A stretch of 64,000 nt of DNA, taken from sequence record NC_054921.1; one strand, written 5' to 3'. This DNA is from Escherichia phage vB_EcoM_IME537. A program made the translations under genes and the position numbers. Positions 1 through 46,107 of the stretch are shown piece after piece. Below the pieces are notes generated by a model. The model was not told the DNA's origin. It ran no database searches and saw only the letters and a program-made list of their open reading frames with translations. Numbering within the stretch: the first letter of the stretch is position 1; every line of letters begins with the position of its first letter.

Positions 1-209
1 AAGTCCATTAGATTATAATATGTAAAAGGCACCGGATTAACATCACTAGTCACAAGCACGTAATTAGCAACTGCTATAATTTCGTTGTTTTTAACGAATA
101 CAAACCGTGATTGATGCGAATGACCTGGACCTGCGTTTTCACGATTAATGATATAACACTGGGCACCTTTATATTTGTACGTGTCTTTGCACTTGTGCAT
201 TTGATAAAG
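1..209 (-). CDS. hypothetical protein, 5' partial at window edge (61.2-position ORF)
   Basis: Minus-strand ORF starting at ATG near 209 (MLYQMHKCKD...) and running off the window start. Confidence 0.3.
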
Positions 210-211
210 CA

Positions 212-505
212 TTATTCACCTACCACTTCAGCGATGATATTTTTATTATTGAAGTTTTTATCGCAATACAAAACATAATTATACTGCATTACACCACCAG
301 ACTTAAGCTGTTTTTGTACTTCAGCTTTCATTTCAGGACGATCACGCTCAACGATATTCATAATATCCGCTTCAATTTGAGTTTCAACCTCAGTCTGATC
401 TGCAGTCATAGACCACTCACACAAATCTTTATCATAACCTGCCATAGCAGGCTGAGCAGTACAAGAAGCCAAAGCAAAAATTGCAGCAAAAACAAATTTT
501 TTCAT
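212..505 (-). CDS. sp: Spackle-like periplasmic protein (inhibitor of gp5 lysozyme, superinfection exclusion)
   Basis: 97 aa with N-terminal signal peptide MKKFVFAAIFALASCTAQPAMA; size and position between 41 and 61 match T4 sp (61.3) as I recall it. Confidence 0.55.
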   Translation of the reverse strand: MKKFVFAAIFALASCTAQPAMAGYDKDLCEWSMTADQTEVETQIEADIMNIVERDRPEMKAEVQKQLKSGGVMQYNYVLYCDKNFNNKNIIAEVVGE

Positions 506-563
506 GATAATCTCCTCAGTAGTTTATGTTTATAATAGTATCTCAATTTCCAACAAAAGTAAA

Positions 564-818
564 CTATTTTATTTCCTCAAGTTCGTTAATCAATAAAAGT
601 TCTCTGACGCTAAAAACAAAGAAAAATGTGTTCCCATCAACCAGAGCATGACCGCTAATAGAACACCCTCTGCGGAATTTAGAAACTTCACAATCTAGAA
701 CTGTAAAGGGTTTTAATCCTATGACTTTAGCTGTGCGTCTATTCAGTTCACAACCACTTGCGAATTTTTCCAAATCTTCTTCTGATTTAAACTGATATTC
801 TCTATTAACTAGCATCAT
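564..818 (-). CDS. hypothetical protein (61.x region)
   Basis: 84 aa ORF preceded by an early promoter cassette. Confidence 0.45.
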   Translation of the reverse strand: MMLVNREYQFKSEEDLEKFASGCELNRRTAKVIGLKPFTVLDCEVSKFRRGCSISGHALVDGNTFFFVFSVRELLLINELEEIK

Positions 819-847
819 TTTCTTTTCTCCGCGATTAGCTGATAGAA

Positions 848-880
848 TTACTATAACACAACTCTATCAGCTTGTAAACT
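848..880 (-). promoter_or_regulatory. T4-type early promoter (GTTTAC -35, 18 bp spacer, TATAGT -10)
   Basis: Minus strand reads GTTTACaagctgatagagttgtgtTATAGT. Confidence 0.5.
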
Positions 881-902
881 ACTATTTTACTAGCATCAAT
901 AA

Positions 903-1166
903 CTATTTCTCTAACTTGACGATTTTACGAAAGTATCTTTTGCATTGACGAATCTGTCGCTTCGTAGGGCGCACAGCAAACTTAATAAATTCCACTCGAC
1001 CAAATGGAGGGCTTTCTTCTGCTGGAATATCTAACACCAATTCCCACGTATCCGCAATAAGTGCCTTGAATTGAGTATTTTTCCTGACATTATATGGAGT
1101 AGGTTTAAATAAAACGATATGCATATTATCCTCGGCAATCCACTTCGCATACTTTCTTATCATCAA
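903..1166 (-). CDS. hypothetical protein (61.4-position)
   Basis: 87 aa ORF, basic C-terminus. Confidence 0.45.
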   Translation of the reverse strand: MMIRKYAKWIAEDNMHIVLFKPTPYNVRKNTQFKALIADTWELVLDIPAEESPPFGRVEFIKFAVRPTKRQIRQCKRYFRKIVKLEK

Positions 1167-1308
1167 TGAAAGCTTTAACTAAAGCTTTATTAACTTCAGC
1201 ATATTGAGTAGTAGCCCATTGAACGTCATCTTTCATCATTGTAATTTCTTTAGTAAACATGCTTTCATTCTTAAACCACCCCATAAAAACTACCTTTACC
1301 AATTCCAT
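1126..1308 (-). CDS. dmd: Dmd-like antitoxin (inhibitor of host RnlA/LsoA RNases)
   Basis: 60 aa ORF MELVKVVFMGWFKNESMF... immediately downstream of gene 41; matches length and position of T4 61.5/dmd from memory. Confidence 0.5.
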   Translation of the reverse strand: MELVKVVFMGWFKNESMFTKEITMMKDDVQWATTQYAEVNKALVKAFIDDKKVCEVDCRG

Positions 1309-1335
1309 AACAATCTCCTCATTTAACCAACAAGA

Positions 1336-1368
1336 CTACTATACCATAGTCTTGTCAGCTTGTAAACT
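1336..1368 (-). promoter_or_regulatory. T4-type early promoter
   Basis: Minus strand GTTTACaagctgacaagactatggTATAGT upstream of the dmd ORF. Confidence 0.5.
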
Positions 1369-2794
1369 AAAATTTTAATTCATTTGCCAAAGCATCTAAC
1401 TGGGCTCGAGTAGATTCATTTCTTTGATAGCGATTCTGCTCAGCTTGTATCTGTTGTGAACCTGCTACTTCGTTCACTTCGGTTGGAGTAGAATCTTGCT
1501 CAATTTCTACCCATTTTTGATTTCCTTTTTGAACACCCATCAAAAACTTATTCCATTTATTCTTATCACCATATCGTGATTTGATTTGCTTAATGAGTTG
1601 CTGTTCAGCCGCTGCTAACTCCTCGGTTTCAATGACCGCAAGCATAAAATCGGCTGTTGCTGGAAGACCGGCAGATTCTGCAATATCGCTCATGTTAACA
1701 TCAGAAGAATCCCAAGCTTGCTTACCAACCTGTGCTGCAGTCCAAAGAACAGTTTCGGTTTCAACAGCTAGAGCACGCAATTCCTCTGCGATAGCTTTAA
1801 CAGTTGTGTAACTATTTTCTGAGTAAACTCTGATGCGACAAGATTTACAAATACCTAGATAGTCGACAATAATGATTGTTGGAACAAAATTCTTCTTGAG
1901 CTTTAATTCGTTTAAAAGCGATCGAAATGTATTAGCGTCTGCTCCACCAGTAGGATACTGTTTAACGATTAAACGTCCAAGAGTAGATTTCTCACGCCAT
2001 TTTTCCATTTTTCCTTTATATTCAGCGTAAGAAATATGCCCATCATCAATGTCATCAAGAGAAACGTCAAGCATATTAGCATCAATACGTTTAGCACAGA
2101 CTTCTTCTGCCATTTCCATGGAAATGTAAAGAACATTATGACCGAGCTGTAAATAATCTGCTGCCAATGAACACAGACCTAATGACTTACCAACGTTAAC
2201 ACCAGCCATTAAAACGTTCAGTGTTCCAGTTTCAGCTCCGCCTTTAGTAATTTTATTTAGAATTTTGAGTTTAAATGGAACCTTACGAGCTTTATTCATA
2301 TAAGATAGCCAACGTGCTTCATAGTCATCCATCCAATCATGACCAACGTAACTATCAAATGAAATTGATAATGCTTGGCGCATGATGTCAGGAATAGCAC
2401 CAACATCCGGCATTTTCTTATTTCGTTTTTCCGGAGGAAGCTCAGCATTGGTTTGAATTTCAATTATTTTAGACGTAGCATTAAACATCGCCCTTTGCTG
2501 AACATATTTTTCTGTTTCTTTTACTAACCAGCTGTGGTCTTCCGGAGAATCGGTTAGTTTTGAAATAAGTGTTTTTACACCAGAATATTCTGTTTCAGTA
2601 AATGAACTATTTTCTAATGCAACATTTAACGCATTAATAGATGGAACGCTATGATACTCATTAACATGTGATTTAATTAATTTGAATGTATTTTTAGCTG
2701 GACCACTTTCAAAATATTCTGAATCCATATATGGCCAAACTTTTGAAAAATAAGCTTGATCAAATATGAGATGAGAAAGAATAATTTCTACCAC
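1367..2794 (-). CDS. 41: replicative DNA helicase gp41
   Basis: 475 aa, DnaB-family P-loop (GVNVGKSLGLCSLAADY); same length as T4 gp41; followed by uvsX and 43 in T4 order. Confidence 0.9.
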   Translation of the reverse strand: MVEIILSHLIFDQAYFSKVWPYMDSEYFESGPAKNTFKLIKSHVNEYHSVPSINALNVALENSSFTETEYSGVKTLISKLTDSPEDHSWLVKETEKYVQQRAMFNATSKIIEIQTNAELPPEKRNKKMPDVGAIPDIMRQALSISFDSYVGHDWMDDYEARWLSYMNKARKVPFKLKILNKITKGGAETGTLNVLMAGVNVGKSLGLCSLAADYLQLGHNVLYISMEMAEEVCAKRIDANMLDVSLDDIDDGHISYAEYKGKMEKWREKSTLGRLIVKQYPTGGADANTFRSLLNELKLKKNFVPTIIIVDYLGICKSCRIRVYSENSYTTVKAIAEELRALAVETETVLWTAAQVGKQAWDSSDVNMSDIAESAGLPATADFMLAVIETEELAAAEQQLIKQIKSRYGDKNKWNKFLMGVQKGNQKWVEIEQDSTPTEVNEVAGSQQIQAEQNRYQRNESTRAQLDALANELKF

Positions 2795-2803
2795 ACTTAC
2801 TCC

Positions 2804-3160
2804 TTAAAGAAATTTAAATTTTTTCTTTGACCTTTTATTAAATGCATCTTGTAGTTGCATTGTAATACATTTTTCTACATGAGGAGCTAACTCAGCTTTT
2901 CTTTCTTGGTCAAGAACAGCAAAGTCCATTACGACTTTTCCATCAACCCAATCTAATTTTGTCACATACACAATGTGTGTAGAACCATCTTCTAGTTTAA
3001 TGACAATCTCCTGGATAACATTTTCCATGGCAGATTTAATTATCTTAAGGGATTCATTAAAAAGACGTTCTTTTCTTTCTTCTTCCCCCTCCGAAGAGGG
3101 GGATTCGTCGATAATTTCTAAATCTAAATCATCTTTATTCATTAAATTCTTCCATATCAC
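2804..3160 (-). CDS. 40: gp40-position protein (head assembly accessory)
   Basis: 118 aa acidic ORF between 41 and uvsX, as in T4. Confidence 0.45.
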   Translation of the reverse strand: MIWKNLMNKDDLDLEIIDESPSSEGEEERKERLFNESLKIIKSAMENVIQEIVIKLEDGSTHIVYVTKLDWVDGKVVMDFAVLDQERKAELAPHVEKCITMQLQDAFNKRSKKKFKFL

Positions 3161-4316
3161 TTAACTGATCTAGGTCAGTTTCTAAATCAGCTGCTGATTT
3201 ACTTTTACTTTCTGGAGATTTAAATTTTTCAACCTTTGAGTTAATTAATTCATCAACTTCAGCTTCAACAATTTCATTGCTATCAATAGCACCTAACTGA
3301 TAAGCACGTTTAATAGCATCTCGGAATGGCTGATGTTTAAATAAAGGACCCCAGAATGTAGTGCAATTGGTATCTTTTGCACGCCAAGATTTTTCTTCGC
3401 GAATCATCTCGCCGGTTTCTTCGTCAAGAAATTCACGAGCATACCAGCCATTTTTAGGTTTTACTACAAATCCTAATTCAAGAGCCATATCTAACAATCC
3501 AGAATAAGGATCGATACCACCGTCAAATTTAACATCAATAAAGAATTTACTTTTTTCTTTAACGGTACGAGATTTTTCTACATTTAGAACAAATTGATAC
3601 CCCTGAAGATCAGAACCATCTTTAATCTGGCGCTTACCGATAATGAATACAGTATCAGCCGAATACATTACGCCTGTACCACCTGTCATCACGGTTTTAC
3701 TAAACATTTCAATTGTTTCAATTGTATGGTTAACCGCAACACATGGAATGTTTTTAATACTAAAATAAGGAGTAACGATACGGAATAATGACTTCAGTGA
3801 TTTAGCACGAGTCATATCTGCCACAGATTTTTCATTCAAGGCATCTTCCGTTTCTTTCTTAGAAGCCATATTACCGATTGAGTCGATGAATACAATAACT
3901 TTTTCACCACGCTCGATAGCTTCAAGCTGATTCACCATATCAATTTTCAGCTGTTCAACTGACTGGATTGGTGTATGAATTACTCGTTCCGGGTCAACTC
4001 CCATGGATCGCAAATAAGCTGGAGTAATACCAAATTCGCTATCATAGAATAAACAAACCGCATCAGGATATTTGTTCAAATACGCCGCAACCATAGTCAA
4101 AGACATATTTGATTTAAAGTGTTTAGAAGGACCTGCAAAAATAGTTAAACCAGACTGCATACCGCCATCAATCGCACCGGAAATAGCAATATTAAGCATT
4201 GGGATTTTTGTACGGATTACATCCTTTTCATTAAAGAATTTAGATGTAGTCAGTTCAGCAGTCATTTTAGAAGTGGAAGCTTTAATCAAACGGGATTTTA
4301 AATCTGCAATAGACAT
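3135..4316 (-). CDS. uvsX: UvsX recombinase (RecA/Rad51 family)
   Basis: 393 aa; Walker A GPSKHFKSN, near-identical to T4 UvsX over most of its length from memory. Confidence 0.92.
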   Translation of the reverse strand: MSIADLKSRLIKASTSKMTAELTTSKFFNEKDVIRTKIPMLNIAISGAIDGGMQSGLTIFAGPSKHFKSNMSLTMVAAYLNKYPDAVCLFYDSEFGITPAYLRSMGVDPERVIHTPIQSVEQLKIDMVNQLEAIERGEKVIVFIDSIGNMASKKETEDALNEKSVADMTRAKSLKSLFRIVTPYFSIKNIPCVAVNHTIETIEMFSKTVMTGGTGVMYSADTVFIIGKRQIKDGSDLQGYQFVLNVEKSRTVKEKSKFFIDVKFDGGIDPYSGLLDMALELGFVVKPKNGWYAREFLDEETGEMIREEKSWRAKDTNCTTFWGPLFKHQPFRDAIKRAYQLGAIDSNEIVEAEVDELINSKVEKFKSPESKSKSAADLETDLDQLSDMEEFNE

Positions 4317-39995: not shown

Positions 39996-40007
39996 AAAGG
40001 CCTCCTA

Positions 40008-40220
40008 TCATTTTTGTCCTGTATTTACTTTATGCCGATGCACGGCCTTAACTTTATCAAGGTATTTTTCAAAATTTCGCAATCTAGTATAGTCTGCCGG
40101 AGATTGGTTGAGTGATACTTCTCGACGCAAAGCTGAAATGATATTTCCAACTTCCCTACGAATTTCATCTAATTGAAGAACAGTAAGATTGCGAAGTTGC
40201 TTTTCAGTTAATTGTAGCAT
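40008..40220 (-). CDS. hypothetical protein (rI.1 position)
   Basis: 70 aa basic ORF. Confidence 0.4.
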
Positions 40221-40262
40221 ATATACCCCTTTAGTTAGATAAACCTATTTATAACTTTTGCA

Positions 40263-40844
40263 CTAACCGAGCTTTTTAGTTAATTCATTCCAATGTTTTC
40301 TACACAAAGAAACATAAATTTCATCACCAATACAGATTTGATTACCTTCTTTAACGGGTGTTCCATCTTCCATTAATCGAGCTGTCATAATAGCTTTTTT
40401 ACCACAATGACAAACTGCCTTTAGTTCAATAAGTTTATCTGCAATCGCCAAAAGTTCTTTAGAACCTTCAAATAATTTTCCGGCGAAATCAGTCCTTAGA
40501 CCATAGGCCATAACAGGAACATTATATGTATCAACAATTCGGCTCAATTGATGCACCTGTTCAGTTTTTAAAAACTGGGCTTCATCTACAAATACGCAAT
40601 GAATATCTTTTTGTGCTTCAGCCCATTTATAGAACTCGAAAATATCCATATCATCTGTAATAATATTTGCTTCCTGCTTAATTCCAATGCGAGAAACGAC
40701 TTCACAGACAGAATCGCGAGTATCAATAGCAGGCTTAAGAACTAATACACTCATTCCGCGCTCTTTATAATTATGCGCAGCAGTCAAAAGAGAAGCAGAT
40801 TTTCCAGCATTCATTGCTGCATAAGTAAAAATTAAACTCGCCAT
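40263..40844 (-). CDS. tk: thymidine kinase
   Basis: 193 aa; P-loop AAMNAGKS and Zn-binding cysteines; same length as T4 Tk. Confidence 0.9.
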   Translation of the reverse strand: MASLIFTYAAMNAGKSASLLTAAHNYKERGMSVLVLKPAIDTRDSVCEVVSRIGIKQEANIITDDMDIFEFYKWAEAQKDIHCVFVDEAQFLKTEQVHQLSRIVDTYNVPVMAYGLRTDFAGKLFEGSKELLAIADKLIELKAVCHCGKKAIMTARLMEDGTPVKEGNQICIGDEIYVSLCRKHWNELTKKLG

Positions 40845-40853
40845 ATCACCTTC

Positions 40854-41039
40854 TTAAAGCGTATTCACATAAGCTATTAATTCGTTTTCTTTCTTATCAA
40901 ACCGATCAGCAAATTCTTCTTGCTGTTCGGGAGATAGCGGGCCGTATTCATCATAAAAGGTGTTTGCTTCTGTATGCTCATCTAGAAGTTCATGGATAAG
41001 CTCAAACAATTTATCTTTTTGTTCTTTACTCAGACTCAT
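40854..41039 (-). CDS. hypothetical small acidic protein (tk.1 position)
   Basis: 61 aa ORF. Confidence 0.4.
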   Translation of the reverse strand: MSLSKEQKDKLFELIHELLDEHTEANTFYDEYGPLSPEQQEEFADRFDKKENELIAYVNTL

Positions 41040-41205
41040 ATATTAATTTCCAGGAGTTTTAAAATAATTCGCTTTTGCTTAAATATTTCCATAGTTAAAT
41101 GACCAGTATCTTTTTGACCGATTCCAATGGCAAAACCTTTATTGACAGCGAGTTCAATTAAATTATCAAGCTCACGTAACACTTCATACTGTAACTCAGA
41201 ACTAT

Positions 41206-41418
41206 TCATTTCGGTTTACCTTCTTTAACGAAATCTGGATAAGGATAAAATCCCGAATAAAATCCTTCACCTTTATGATTGATGCATCCTTTATTAGAAC
41301 AATAGCACCAATAATCGAAATCACAAGCCATTTCATCGTTGCATAAAGCAAAAACAACTGGCCATTTACACTTTTCACAATGGGCATTTTTAAGAATACT
41401 AGTTTGGCTCATAACCAT
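41206..41418 (-). CDS. hypothetical cysteine-rich small protein
   Basis: 70 aa, multiple Cys/His (CEKCKW...CYCSNKGCINH). Confidence 0.4.
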   Translation of the reverse strand: MVMSQTSILKNAHCEKCKWPVVFALCNDEMACDFDYWCYCSNKGCINHKGEGFYSGFYPYPDFVKEGKPK

Positions 41419-41636
41419 GTAACCTTTAAGCAGTATTCTTCTACATGCTGTTTACGACCTTTCTTATCAATAAAGGTATATTCAACGAATGTTCCAATGT
41501 AGTCTTTATCTACGTCATGTGGACTATTAATTGGGCATTTAGTACGGCAAATGCGTTCCCATTGACGAATAATTACTGCCTTATTCTTTGGGTCATATGG
41601 ATGTGGATAATGTATATTCATAATAATGGTTCCCAA
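41409..41636 (-). CDS. hypothetical protein
   Basis: 75 aa ORF. Confidence 0.35.
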   Translation of the reverse strand: MGTIIMNIHYPHPYDPKNKAVIIRQWERICRTKCPINSPHDVDKDYIGTFVEYTFIDKKGRKQHVEEYCLKVTWL

Positions 41637-42085
41637 TCAACAATCACAATTTCTAATTTAGAGGAATATGTATCTAAAATCCCCTCAATAATATCCCAGT
41701 TCCCTTTACCTATGCCTGCACCAATCCTAGGCATATAGATTGTAGGTTTAATCAGTTTATTTTCACCAAACTCATTTAATTCTAACATACAATTCATTAA
41801 AGCGGAATACTCAAAATTTGGCCCTGGTTGAAATTGAGTATAAAGGTTGAAGCAATACGCTTTATGAGTCCTAAAGTATTTTTCATAGACTGAGTAAGAA
41901 CCAAGTTTAGTTACATCACCCCATTCAGTCTGTAATTTATCAGCTTCCAAAATTTTAGGGAAAGCTTTGGTTAATTGACCCGCTACGCCTGAACCCATAG
42001 TATGAAAACAATTGCATCCATGCGCAATATTTTTACCTTCAGCGAAAAGGGCGACAATATCGCCCTTGATATATTTTACAATCAT
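41618..42085 (-). CDS. macro-domain protein (predicted ADP-ribose binding/hydrolase)
   Basis: 155 aa; macro-domain-like motifs (GDIV...IAHGCNC...GSGVAG...PRIGAGIG). Confidence 0.55.
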   Translation of the reverse strand: MIVKYIKGDIVALFAEGKNIAHGCNCFHTMGSGVAGQLTKAFPKILEADKLQTEWGDVTKLGSYSVYEKYFRTHKAYCFNLYTQFQPGPNFEYSALMNCMLELNEFGENKLIKPTIYMPRIGAGIGKGNWDIIEGILDTYSSKLEIVIVDWEPLL

Positions 42086-42429
42086 CTAGTACTCAATCCT
42101 CGATTATAAGAATCTACCAAACGGTCAACCATTGAATGACAAGCGGCTTTATCTTTCTCCTCCGCAACTGAACATTCTAAGGTATTCCACTTTTTAGCAT
42201 ATCGTTTTAATAATGTATCGTTTTTGTATCTGCTTGATTTATCTCTTTCTCCGTCTTTATATGCATATATTAATTTCTGCGCAAATTCAGCTTGGCATGC
42301 TTTATTTTTCCCACAATAATCTGCCGCAGTGCGATTTACATACTCTCTAATTTCAGTATATGATGTATTTGCTAACGCAGAAGCAGAAAATGAAATTAAT
42401 CCTATACATAAAACCAAAATTTTAGTCAT
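42082..42429 (-). CDS. vs: Vs (valyl-tRNA synthetase modifier)-position secreted protein
   Basis: 115 aa with signal peptide; size and position between tk and regB match T4 vs. Confidence 0.55.
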   Translation of the reverse strand: MTKILVLCIGLISFSASALANTSYTEIREYVNRTAADYCGKNKACQAEFAQKLIYAYKDGERDKSSRYKNDTLLKRYAKKWNTLECSVAEEKDKAACHSMVDRLVDSYNRGLSTR

Positions 42430-42967
42430 TTACTATTTCCAAAAGTTTATTATTTTTAAGGTAATTAGCCTTTTCTAGGACTTCAGAAGCATATTTAGAA
42501 CCTGCTTTAACATTCCATCCCGAATTATAAGAGGATATTGCCTTTCTTATATCGCCCTTATGTATATTTAACCAATAAGAAAGTTCAATGTACGCCCAGG
42601 AAGCTGAATTGGACCGTTTATTCAACATTCTTTTTATTTCAGCATCGGTCATATTATAACCAAGTTCCTTAACTCTCGCTCGCATAGTAGGCAAATAATT
42701 TTGGAACATTCCATAAGCGTGATGCTTTGGTTTAGATTTTAAATTAACTCCGGCAGAGCTTTCTTGCCATAAAATAGCAGCCATTATATGACCTAATCCA
42801 CCCTTGTGGATATTTTTATGTGTTTTATATTTTCCATCCTTAGAAAATTGTTCCCCGAATTGATACGCGTAACGCATGTTATCGAGTTGGACATTACTGA
42901 AAGTATGCTCGGAGCTATGTGCCATCATTGAAATGGCCAATAGACCAGCGAGTAGTGCTTTTCTCAT
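42422..42967 (-). CDS. secreted lytic-transglycosylase-like protein (vs.1 position)
   Basis: 181 aa; signal peptide; SLT-like catalytic region (LWQESS...). Confidence 0.5.
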   Translation of the reverse strand: MRKALLAGLLAISMMAHSSEHTFSNVQLDNMRYAYQFGEQFSKDGKYKTHKNIHKGGLGHIMAAILWQESSAGVNLKSKPKHHAYGMFQNYLPTMRARVKELGYNMTDAEIKRMLNKRSNSASWAYIELSYWLNIHKGDIRKAISSYNSGWNVKAGSKYASEVLEKANYLKNNKLLEIVND

Positions 42968-42974
42968 GCTTACC

Positions 42975-43436
42975 TCATTGAGTTTTAATTACTGCTTTAG
43001 AAGCCTTTCCTGGTAAACGACGACTGTTGATAATTGCCATCCTACATTGAAGTGACGGGTCTTTGAACTTCGCGTTAGGTTTACAAACTGTAAATCCAAG
43101 CCAAAGATTTCCATCTGTGATTTCTAAACGTCCAGGACGATATTCAACCCCATCAATAAAATCCTCGTCAATGTCAGGACGCGGAGGCATACTCAGGAAT
43201 TCATTAACTTCTAAAACATGGTCTTTTATTTTGTGGAATAATTCAAAAACATATGTCTCATCAATCTCCCGTTGAATTGCACGGTCAAGAAGATGCTGAG
43301 AATATTTTAGATGAAACGATGAGACCCCTGCTGCTTTTGATGCCTCACGAATCTCATTGTTAATTTGACGAAACTCCGACTCAAAGTGACGACGAAGCTT
43401 ATTTCGACGGATAAAAACTTCTGTATTGATAGTCAT
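42975..43436 (-). CDS. regB: RegB endoribonuclease
   Basis: 153 aa, near-identical to T4 RegB from memory. Confidence 0.88.
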   Translation of the reverse strand: MTINTEVFIRRNKLRRHFESEFRQINNEIREASKAAGVSSFHLKYSQHLLDRAIQREIDETYVFELFHKIKDHVLEVNEFLSMPPRPDIDEDFIDGVEYRPGRLEITDGNLWLGFTVCKPNAKFKDPSLQCRMAIINSRRLPGKASKAVIKTQ

Positions 43437-43460
43437 ATTATTCTCCTCTTAACTGATAGA

Positions 43461-43494
43461 AAAATTATACCACAGTCAAGAGGAAAAGTAAACA
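43461..43494 (-). promoter_or_regulatory. T4-type early promoter upstream of regB
   Basis: Minus strand GTTTACttttcctcttgactgtggTATAAT. Confidence 0.55.
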
Positions 43495-43495
43495 G

Positions 43496-43816
43496 TTATT
43501 CTTTAAATCTAATCAATTTATTCATAGACTTTGAAACTTCTGCACGAACCTCATGTAGATTTTTGAGCTGTTCAAGACGCTGCTCATAGTAAGCAATTTC
43601 ATCTTCTTCGAGACAGTCCTGTGAATCTTCTTTAAGATAACGTGCATAGTCCTGGAAAGCGTTACGAACTACTTCCTGGAAGTCATCAAGACTTTGAATT
43701 TTCTTAGGAGCAACAGATACACGACGAGGGGCAGTATAATACTCATAACCAAACCCTGCGCTTAATTGGGCCATTAATATTTTTCCTCTGGTTGGAACAC
43801 AGCACGGCAAGCCCAC
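43496..43816 (-). CDS. hypothetical protein (vs.3 position)
   Basis: 106 aa ORF. Confidence 0.4.
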
Positions 43817-44076
43817 ATACTGGCTTCTTTGAGCTTCGTTTTAGCAATAGTTAACTGATCGATGCTTTCAGCATAATTCTTCGCGAATTCATAGTCTTCG
43901 CAATTATTTAGCACTTCCCAGAATTCGTCATATAAAGCATCAAAGATAAGTCCTAAACGAACTTCAGCGTCTTTAATAGCATTTACTTTACCGATTTTCT
44001 CTTCAGTGTGCGGCTTATAACCTTTAATATCTTCAATCATATTTGACTTCCTCACCAGTACATAAATCGTATTCAA
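43774..44076 (-). CDS. hypothetical protein
   Basis: 100 aa ORF. Confidence 0.4.
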
Positions 44077-44254
44077 CTAAACGAATAGGTTCATGAATTC
44101 CATATCCTTGAACAGAAATTTCTGTCGTAGGATAAATTCCATCAATATCGCCCATATTCCACGCTTCATTAAATTGCTGTTCGCCTGAATTACTAAACCA
44201 CTCGGCGAAAGCATTTAGCACATCTTCAGAACCTTCAATAATTATCTTTGCCAT
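44033..44254 (-). CDS. hypothetical small acidic protein
   Basis: 73 aa ORF. Confidence 0.4.
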   Translation of the reverse strand: MAKIIIEGSEDVLNAFAEWFSNSGEQQFNEAWNMGDIDGIYPTTEISVQGYGIHEPIRLVEYDLCTGEEVKYD

Positions 44255-44616
44255 TACAAACTCTCAGTAAAGGTACGAGCAATAACGTCGCGTTGCTGTT
44301 CCGGAGTCAGAGAGTTAAAGCGAACTGCGTATCCGGATACACGGATGGTCAGCTGCGGATATTTTTCCGGATGCTTAACTGCATCTTCCAGAGTTTCACG
44401 ACGCAGAACGTTTACGTTCAGGTGTTGACCACCCTCAATTTTAACTGTAGGCTGTGTTTCAATTTCAATTTCACGGGCATGCAAACCATAGAAAATTTCT
44501 GGGTCTACAAAAGAGTCCTCTTTAAAGGTTTTAGAGACAATAATTCGTGCTTGAATACCATCTTCAAAATAAATAGTACCTTTATGTGTGCCTTCAAGAA
44601 TTTGATATGCTTTCAT
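44254..44616 (-). CDS. autonomous glycyl-radical cofactor (GrcA/YfiD-like)
   Basis: 120 aa; C-terminal glycyl-radical signature RVSGYAVRF and a C-terminal about 60 aa that match my recollection of E. coli GrcA; local GC content visibly higher than flanking phage DNA. Confidence 0.7.
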
Positions 44617-44623
44617 ATAAACC

Positions 44624-45004
44624 TCAATTAGAAAATAAATTTATCCAAGATTGTTCTTTAATTAAAAATGGCTCAGAATCATATGCCATTAAACTCTGTG
44701 TGATTAGTCCTTTAAAAGGCCCATCAATAAATTCCATGGTAAAGTATGGAATTTTATTCATTAATCTCGCATTAGGAGCAGTACATAAAACTCTGCATCC
44801 TTTGAATACGCCTTTTTGCAATTTGTATTGCTTAGGATAAAATTCGCTTAAAATGTTATTTTTTGCCAAAATTTCAAAATGATTCACCAATTTATTTTTA
44901 ATAGTTTTTGGTGAAAAATAAAGATATTCGAAAAGCTGAGTGTCTGTCATCATTGCATTCCGATTACGAAAAACTGTGGACGAGTAATACCACCAATGCA
45001 GCAT
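44624..45004 (-). CDS. hypothetical protein
   Basis: 126 aa ORF. Confidence 0.4.
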
Positions 45005-45540
45005 TTACTATTGCAGCAGTGTTGCACAGTTTCAATATGAATATCGTAAATTTTATCCATATCAGGAGATTTAACAGGCTCATCGATTATATACAAAATT
45101 CGAGAAAGCGATAAACCTCTGAACTTGCTACCTCTATTACCAACAAAACTACGGACAGAATCAGTAAATAAACGGAATCGAATATCATCGCTAGAATAAC
45201 GAGAAAATTCTTTTTTAATGCGGCCCGCAGAAATTTTAGCGTAAGCTGAAGTATTAGAAAGAACAATAACTGTTCCACCATCATACAACCAATTAGCGGC
45301 AAAATTAGTTACTGCAGTTGATTTACCAGATTGTCTGCCACCATCTAAACGAAGTGTACAATATTCTTTAAATAAATGCGACGAATCAGGTACATAAAAT
45401 CCACTATTACAAATTTCTTCTACTCTAGCATCAGAATGGTGTGTAAAAGCATTCATCAGGGATAGATAAGGACCAGTTAAAAATGTTCTCATTTTATTCT
45501 CTCTAAATTTGGGCCATTCCATGGCGCATGAATTGTCCAT
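44950..45540 (-). CDS. P-loop NTPase-like hypothetical protein
   Basis: 196 aa; Walker A GGRQSGKST, Walker B-like LYIIDEP. Confidence 0.45.
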   Translation of the reverse strand: MDNSCAMEWPKFRENKMRTFLTGPYLSLMNAFTHHSDARVEEICNSGFYVPDSSHLFKEYCTLRLDGGRQSGKSTAVTNFAANWLYDGGTVIVLSNTSAYAKISAGRIKKEFSRYSSDDIRFRLFTDSVRSFVGNRGSKFRGLSLSRILYIIDEPVKSPDMDKIYDIHIETVQHCCNSKCCIGGITRPQFFVIGMQ

Positions 45541-45633
45541 TTCTGTATTTACCCATTACCGCACTTGGGCTCGACCTTATTACAGGTTGGCGGGAATCCC
45601 TCACAGAATCATGAGGTCCAGGTTGTTCCCATG

Positions 45634-46107
45634 TTATTTGAACGATTTAACGTACTGAATAGAACCTTTACTATTCACGAAAGCGATTTTACCATTTTTA
45701 TTATACATGGTAGCAGTACGCTGATAACCATAAGTTTGTTTACCAGATTGATAACCAACTAATGCGAAATTATCTTCACCCATTTTATTCTGTTTAGCGC
45801 GAATACGTTCATGTCCATGCGCCATAAGAACCTTAGCATCACCAGTTGCAATGGATCGACGAGTTTTTTCATCTTCAACTGTATTAACAAAATCATCAAA
45901 TGAATCAAATTTAGCATGAGATTTATTATACAGTTTTCCATCTACTGCATAATTATATCCCTGTACATCCATCTCAACTTCTGTACCATCATCTAATACA
46001 GCAGTAATTTTCTGTCCTTTTTTAAATTTCAAAAGATCAGTAAAAGATTCAGCAATAATTTGAGAATTAATAGCTGCTTCAGTAATAAATTCTTGATATG
46101 TTTTCAT
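45634..46107 (-). CDS. internal-protein-like head protein with capsid-targeting leader (ipIII/ipII locus)
   Basis: 157 aa; N-terminal MKTYQEFITEAA matches the T4 internal-protein capsid targeting sequence; located next to e. Confidence 0.55.
   Translation of the reverse strand: MKTYQEFITEAAINSQIIAESFTDLLKFKKGQKITAVLDDGTEVEMDVQGYNYAVDGKLYNKSHAKFDSFDDFVNTVEDEKTRRSIATGDAKVLMAHGHERIRAKQNKMGEDNFALVGYQSGKQTYGYQRTATMYNKNGKIAFVNSKGSIQYVKSFK

Follow-up and report, generated by a model that had tools for sequence, protein, structure and literature searches.

The open reading frame (ORF) studied here is tk.4 of a T4-type phage (Tequatrovirus), a gene that has been renamed adfM (anti-DarT factor, macrodomain). 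DarTG systems halt phages via ADP-ribosylation of phage DNA, and we consider it probable that the Tk.4 macrodomain undoes the marks that DarT2 leaves on that DNA, with an active site like that of SCO6735, a macrodomain of Streptomyces coelicolor. Published work has already described this gene as well as its part in counter-defence, so neither is new here. Coordinates refer to the window, i.e., the whole 64,000-nucleotide stretch of Escherichia phage vB_EcoM_IME537 (NC_054921.1) that was analysed, and the relevant features are as follows:

40263..40844: thymidine kinase (Pfam TK, 205.7 bits)
41409..41621: tk.3 homologue (DUF7202, 70 aa)
41618..41621, minus strand: ATGA overlap of the tk.4 stop and tk.3 start, which reads TTATTATGAATAT; the CDS annotated in NC_054928 begins there
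41618..42085, minus strand: tk.4/adfM CDS, a single macrodomain of 155 aa (ORF listing, homology)
41696..41731, minus strand: second glycine-rich loop PRIGAGIGKGNW, residues 119-130, putatively diphosphate-binding (alignment)
41834..41845, minus strand: L81-Y82-T83-Q84, with Q84 at the position of DarG K80, TARG1 K84 and SCO6735 Gln85
41975..41998, minus strand: first glycine-rich loop MGSGVAGQ, residues 30-37, part of the putative ADP-ribose-binding cleft (aligned to known macrodomains)
42008..42022, minus strand: H22-G23-C24-N25-C26 motif, with N25 corresponding to SCO6735 Asn27, PhiKZ AdfM Asn23 and the conserved DarG Asn
42082..42085, minus strand: ATGA overlap of the vs stop and tk.4 start, where the sequence reads ACTAGATGATTGT
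42082..42429, minus strand: vs (no Pfam match; in related Tequatrovirus genomes this neighbour carries the annotation vs, valyl-tRNA synthetase modifier)
42422..42967, minus strand: vs.1 (181 aa; SLT domain, 23.2 bits)
42975..43436, minus strand: regB (REGB_T4, 230 bits)
43464..43492, minus strand: sigma-70-like promoter match upstream of regB (TTTACT-17-TATAAT with TG), from a scan that as a whole was not above chance

The ORF listing of the window gives an ATG-started ORF with exactly the coordinates and length reported in a preliminary description of this DNA. That description had also placed it in the tk-vs interval, which is correct because the thymidine kinase gene lies on one side at 40263..40844, with vs on the other. 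Length alone is weak to modest evidence for a gene, because stop-free runs of at least 155 codons occurred in 23 of 2000 shuffles (20 kb, one frame; about 1%), so it is homology that decides. Over the 2 kb at 41000..43000, the window matches Escherichia phage vB_vPM_PD112 with 100% identity, and hundreds of Tequatrovirus genomes match this region with 95-99%.

Upstream of tk.4, the genes regB, vs.1 and vs (42082..43436, minus strand) belong with it to one tightly packed leftward gene string with the same order as in T4. These genes are context and lie outside the Tk.4 mechanism, although the ATGA overlap suggests that translation of vs and tk.4 may be coupled. No ADP-ribosyltransferase or darT was found among the neighbours of tk.4, i.e., vs, vs.1, regB, the DUF7202 gene and a zinc-binding ORF. 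Some of these neighbours have features of their own. The vs.1 product has a signal-peptide-like N-terminus (MRKALLAGLLAISMMAHS) and a lytic-transglycosylase (SLT) domain which barely exceeds the Pfam cut-off (23.2 vs 21.3 bits), and it is called hypothetical in RefSeq. As for vs, no other T4 gene showed so strong a depletion confined to minimal medium in a HIDEN-SEQ screen, and its deletion in T4 impaired plaque formation in that medium (bioRxiv 10.1101/2025.11.20.689424). Between tk and tk.4 (40854..41621) there are four small ORFs of 61 aa (DUF7438), 57 aa (no family), 70 aa (phage zinc-binding domain) and 70 aa (DUF7202, the Tk.3 homologue). The T4 interval has three (tk.1, tk.2 and tk.3), while Shigella phage Sf24 has all five; judged by ORF size and annotation, the window is missing tk.1 and has two additional ORFs between the tk.2 and tk.3 homologues.

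The protein is identical to Tk.4 of phage T4 (NP_049723.1) at all 155 residues. At the nucleotide level, 6 of 468 positions differ and all six differences are synonymous, which indicates purifying selection. The order regB-vs.1-vs-tk.4-tk.3 is common to the window and T4, and the two genes are orthologous. The window thus carries the very gene for T4 Tk.4, i.e., AdfM: protein sequence and vs/tk.3 locus agree, and the two phages differ here in those six synonymous positions and in the small ORFs from tk to tk.3. Because the proteins are identical, genetic results obtained with T4 transfer directly to the protein in the window.

Those results come from work on DarTG2. T4 without adfA and adfN stays fully resistant to this system (PMC11825919), so another factor was to be expected. 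[quoted passage not shown] In their words, it ‘seems likely’ that T4 AdfM takes ADP-ribose off DNA enzymatically, and their genetic evidence is that of a preprint using one DarTG2 system (bioRxiv 10.1101/2025.11.20.689424). A search of the available literature turned up no enzymatic assay of T4 Tk.4.

Protection by Tk.4 is not generic against ADP-ribosylating defences, because T4, which carries tk.4, is strongly restricted by CmdTAC, an mRNA ADP-ribosyltransferase system (PMC11618068). The preliminary description had suggested a counter-defence role against host ADP-ribosylating toxins, and this holds for DarTG2, given the T4 tk.4 genetics, but not as a general role, given that CmdTAC still restricts T4. 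We infer that the relevant substrate of Tk.4 is DNA (thymidine modified by DarT2), not the targets of ADP-ribosylating toxins in general. With that adjustment, the earlier interpretation of the ORF as an ADP-ribosylation-reversing, counter-defence macrodomain is supported.

Several methods agree on the fold. Tk.4 matches Pfam Macro (PF01661) with 27.7 bits (E=2.9e-6; gathering cut-off 22 bits) over profile positions 2-113 of 118, and it matches PHROG 335 with E=1.3e-65. A database search found 203 relatives, and an AlphaFold2 model built on 64 relatives (pLDDT 95.8, pTM 0.91) has the three-layer alpha/beta/alpha macro fold. When that model was compared with the PDB using Foldseek, the top matches were TARG1, Poa1p, BT1257 and DarG (E=6.6e-10 to 3e-7). 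Structure prediction and family comparison, which had been proposed as checks on the macro-domain assignment, thus both bear it out. An “ALC1/TARG1-like” macrodomain in this context is a member of the class that holds TARG1, DarG, SCO6735 and Poa1p. Whether sequence or structure is compared, the nearest neighbours of Tk.4 fall in this class and stand apart from the MacroD-like and viral types. From the Pfam, PHROG, AlphaFold2 and Foldseek evidence, Tk.4 is therefore a free-standing macrodomain of the ALC1/TARG1-like class.

Existing annotations describe the protein in other ways. Its sole NCBIfam match is antitoxin_DarG (NF048014), which it matches in the macro part only (profile positions 2-146 of 338) and with 30.3 bits, far under the curated cut-off of 250 bits. 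The features that go with NF048014 equivalogs are a score above that cut-off, a catalytic lysine, a C-terminal DarT-binding domain and an adjacent darT, and Tk.4 has none of them. Judged in this way, Tk.4 is not a DarG equivalog and is better described as a predicted SCO6735-like free-standing hydrolase. The T4 record carries the note ‘contains A1pp phosphatase motif’, RefSeq uses ‘phosphatase’, and the A1pp motif in tk.4 orthologues was reported in 2006 in a comparison of T4-like genomes (PMC1524935), so that the macro (A1pp) character of the protein was known before. We dropped ‘phosphatase’ (PHROG 335/RefSeq) as the primary function, as it is based solely on the historical name of the domain (A1pp).

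The active site was examined by aligning Tk.4 with 64 relatives and with characterised macrodomains. Macro-like glycine-rich motifs, as mentioned in the preliminary description, are present at residues 30-37 and 119-130. The first aligns with the MGKG/MGAG loop of DarG, TARG1 and PhiKZ AdfM, and among the relatives its G33 and A35 are invariant and M30 nearly so. In the second, P119, I121, G122 and G124 are invariant, and G122/G124 align with SCO6735 G126/G128. N25 and G23 occur in 64/64 family members and H22 in 60/64. Gln84 is likewise invariant (64/64), and its placement was agreed on by MAFFT, hmmsearch and hhalign.

What Tk.4 does not have is the catalytic lysine of DarG (K80), TARG1 (K84) and PhiKZ AdfM, a key residue located after a conserved Thr. 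Gln84 is found instead, and hhalign confirmed that it sits opposite the DarG lysine. The catalytic and binding residues that an alignment was expected to show are therefore present as far as Asn25, Gln84 and the glycine loops are concerned, but a lysine of the DarG/TARG1 type is not. Because Gln84 replaces that lysine, the comparison should be judged against an SCO6735-type site, which Tk.4 matches: its Q84 and N25 align with SCO6735 Q85 and N27 using MAFFT, hmmsearch and hhalign. SCO6735 removes ADP-ribose linked to thymidine in DNA and gives protection from DarT, and its activity is nearly abolished by N27S and lost with either Q85A or Q85E (PMC9411070). In the mechanism proposed in that study, Asn27 locks Gln85, which in turn places the distal ribose, and the reaction itself is carried out by an activated water (PMC9411070). 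SCO6735 also cleaves uracil-ADP-ribose on RNA. Mutation of the conserved Asn lowers the activity of PhiKZ AdfM as well (PMC13309987). Because SCO6735 is active with Gln85 at the same position, Gln84 in place of lysine would, by analogy, not be the signature of a dead enzyme, and the active site of Tk.4 would be of the unusual lysine-less SCO6735 type.

SCO6735 (PDB 5e3b) and its close homologue BT1257 of Bacteroides (2fg1/2afc) share with Tk.4 both the Gln at the catalytic-lysine position and the locking Asn, and SCO6735 is free-standing like Tk.4. They are the closest solved group by sequence (E=1.3e-9 with a single sequence, 8.7e-18 with a profile), with an identity to Tk.4 of about 25-29%. 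The SCO6735 sequence was taken from its PDB entry via BT1257, and its numbering reproduces the published H24, N27, K34, Q85 and K89; a direct PDB search for SCO6735 with a Tk.4 fragment returned the C-terminal loop only. There are also differences. The lysines with which SCO6735 positions DNA are not kept in Tk.4: K34 is replaced by Ser32 (Ala, Ser or Gly in the family), and the longer loop after the Gln, with G87 and K89, is missing. Furthermore, SCO6735 is encoded by a cellular, DNA-damage-inducible gene, whereas tk.4 is a phage gene. On these alignments, SCO6735 and not DarG is most likely the right model for the chemistry of Tk.4.

The account that we consider probable would then run as follows. 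In an infected cell with DarTG2, DarT2 would ADP-ribosylate thymidines in single-stranded phage DNA (TNTC motifs) and so block replication. Tk.4 would bind the ADP-ribose via both glycine-rich loops and hydrolyse the bond between ribose and thymine, with Gln84, held by Asn25, positioning the distal ribose and an activated water acting without a catalytic lysine. The DNA would be restored, making Tk.4 a phage-carried orphan ‘antitoxin’. We infer such Gln-based removal of ADP-ribose from DNA by analogy with SCO6735.

Other known systems share parts of this scheme. The DarG macrodomain (Thermus aquaticus 5m31/5m3e, Mycobacterium tuberculosis 5m3i) has the conserved Asn and glycine loops in common with Tk.4, and the biological logic (undoing DarT2) is the same, but DarG has Lys80 where Tk.4 has Gln84, and Tk.4 has neither the C-terminal DarT-binding domain nor a darT partner. 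PhiKZ gp104, a protein of chimalliviruses, was independently named AdfM (Cell Reports 2026) and removes DarT2-made ADP-ribose in vitro from the second T of TNTC (PMC13309987). It shares its name and anti-DarTG2 role with Tk.4, but it clearly resembles DarG (E=9.4e-25 with the M. tuberculosis protein) and, unlike Tk.4, has retained the lysine in its FPTK motif; a direct BLAST between gp104 and Tk.4 aligned only 23 residues (E=0.005). The two AdfM proteins are therefore separate macrodomain lineages doing the same job. They also differ in setting, as gp104 is imported into a phage nucleus, a compartment that T4 lacks. Human TARG1/OARD1 (4j5r, 2lgr) uses a Lys84/Asp125 dyad, where Tk.4 has Gln84 and Gly126. 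Within T4 itself, AdfN (gp30.3, NADAR) is a functional analogue, i.e., an orphan antitoxin-like hydrolase which reverses DNA ADP-ribosylation, but it has an unrelated NADAR fold, acts on DarT1-modified guanine and gives no protection against DarTG2 (PMC11825919). With tk.4/adfM, T-even phages are known to have separate answers to each DarTG branch: AdfN and AdfA for DarTG1, AdfM for DarTG2.

Tk.4 might instead protect mainly without catalysis, by binding DarT2 or by shielding target or ADP-ribosylated DNA in a stoichiometric block. Inactive SCO6735 (Q85A), DarG (K80A) and TARG1 (K84A) all inhibit DarT in vitro, and SCO6735, the closest characterised relative of Tk.4, is the strongest DarT inhibitor (PMC9411070), so Tk.4 may owe part of its protection to something other than enzymatic activity. 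Toxin binding seems to be how AdfA and AdfB work (PMC11825919), and the missing canonical lysine would also fit a protein that does not catalyse. However, Asn25, Gln84 and both glycine loops are invariant over 64 diverse relatives, which argues for catalysis that has been preserved by selection. Tk.4 also has no counterpart of the DarT-binding domain of DarG, and a hydrolase works whichever DarT2 variant left the mark, which suits a broad distribution among phages. We therefore regard a mainly non-catalytic role as unlikely. A primary substrate that is a small ADP-ribose derivative is quite improbable in our judgement, whether it be ADP-ribose-1''-phosphate (as for a Poa1p-like phosphatase), O-acetyl-ADP-ribose or an ADP-ribose-based immune signal. 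Such a substrate would agree with the ‘phosphatase; contains A1pp phosphatase motif’ annotation in T4 and RefSeq, with two T4-like metagenomic contigs in which RNA ligase 1 and polynucleotide kinase lie close to the homologue, and with the view of Iyer and colleagues that low-molecular-weight ADP-ribose derivatives are what most phage macro domains act on (PMC9503650). Yet the sole phenotype from the genome-wide screen is specific to DarTG2, which modifies DNA (bioRxiv 10.1101/2025.11.20.689424), and the Tk.4 profile is nearer to BT1257/SCO6735 (E=8.7e-18, 5.5e-14) than to wild-type Poa1p (E=1.8e-12). In Poa1p, moreover, Ser stands in place of the invariant Gln84, and Phe152 in place of Gly126. 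Among the Poa1p residues that have been probed in solved mutants, H23 is kept (H22), S30 corresponds to T29 and F152 to G126.

T4 encodes three ADP-ribosyltransferases (Alt, ModA and ModB), and a phage eraser would be their natural partner, so one can also imagine Tk.4 reversing or tuning the ADP-ribosylation (or RNAylation) of host proteins by these enzymes. Alt and the Mod enzymes modify arginine, however, and to our knowledge ALC1/TARG1-like macrodomains act on acidic residues, thymine or uracil, not on arginine. Nor does tk.4 adjoin alt or modA/modB. It is non-essential on plain E. coli K-12 and scored in the DarTG2 condition only (bioRxiv 10.1101/2025.11.20.689424). Reversal of Alt/Mod modification by Tk.4 finds no support here, and we consider it very improbable.

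Using tblastn, relatives of Tk.4 were found in 2,749 of 50,697 phage records, including phages of Escherichia, Klebsiella, Salmonella, Pseudomonas, Vibrio, Acinetobacter, Aeromonas, Campylobacter and Bacillus. The tblastn identities form distinct bands, with 219 records at 95% or more, 159 at 80-90% and 2361 below 60%. Sf24 shows how much tk.4 can differ between otherwise similar phages: its RegB, Vs.1, Vs, Tk.3, Tk and rI are 96-100% identical to those of the window, but its Tk.4 is only 57% identical. The Sf24 protein (L005:2501-2980) has 159 aa compared to 155, is nearly the same over its first ~33 residues, and keeps N25, Q84 and the glycine loops. We read this as an allele replacement: within Tequatrovirus, tk.4 behaves like a swappable cassette, as is typical of counter-defence genes. 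A wider idea, which we put forward tentatively and hold to be doubtful, is that Tk.4-type proteins form a lineage of their own among nucleic-acid ADP-ribose hydrolases, one that is carried by phages, has Gln/Asn in place of the lysine and is separate from the DarG-derived PhiKZ AdfM, with swapped alleles that may be tuned to DarT2 variants or to further substrates (e.g., uracil-ADP-ribose on RNA).

We also looked for bacterial relatives beside a darT gene, as these would point to Tk.4 as a captured antitoxin. Two homologues labelled ‘bacterial MAG’ (P0072 and P0118) sit in T4-like phage contigs, which carry Rnl1, a Dda-like helicase, Pnk and dCMP deaminase, and for this reason they are uninformative about a bacterial origin. 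In these contigs (L003:344-3739 and L004:1987-7941), the neighbours of the Tk.4 homologue differ from those in T4 and include RNA ligase 1 with a Dda-like helicase, or DNA ligase with polynucleotide kinase and an SLT protein, which shows that not all relatives have the vs-tk.4-tk.3 arrangement.

Transcription signals were scanned over 40000..46000. Promoter-like sites were not more frequent than chance (26 vs 23.7 +/- 4.6 in shuffles) and terminators were fewer than expected (2 vs 3.6), so transcription of tk.4 is deduced from gene packing only. The promoter match upstream of regB is a possible source of a transcript reaching tk.4.

At the left end of the window, the first 2.5 kb contains no visible homologue of 61.2 (adfA). 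This end (1..2800) is not collinear with NC_054928 (89716..): dmd occupies 1126..1308 and gene 41 occupies 1367..2794, while gene 41 is at 2465..3892 in NC_054928, so the two genes lie about 1.1 kb to the left of where they would be expected. Either there is an indel somewhere between the start of the window and 41000..43000, where it is identical to PD112, or the window belongs to a different Tequatrovirus.

Two further observations concern the tk.4 sequence itself. Codons 7-13 (42047..42067), within the 5' end of the gene, contain a perfect 8-9 bp hairpin, AAGGGCGATATTGTCGCCCTT, which looks terminator-like in a plus-strand scan. Its core, ATCAAGGGCGATATTGTCGCCCT, recurs without a nucleotide change in T4, in Sf24 and, at a greater distance, in Mosigvirus mobillu, synonymous positions included, while the flanks differ; this could reflect an RNA structure, a recombination boundary or chance. 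Codon 36 (41978..41980), inside the first glycine-rich loop, encodes Gly36 in both the window and the T4 reference, and a Ser36Gly change in tk.4 (106A>G) separates T4 sublines in a study of 48-year-old T4 stocks (PMC8573959).
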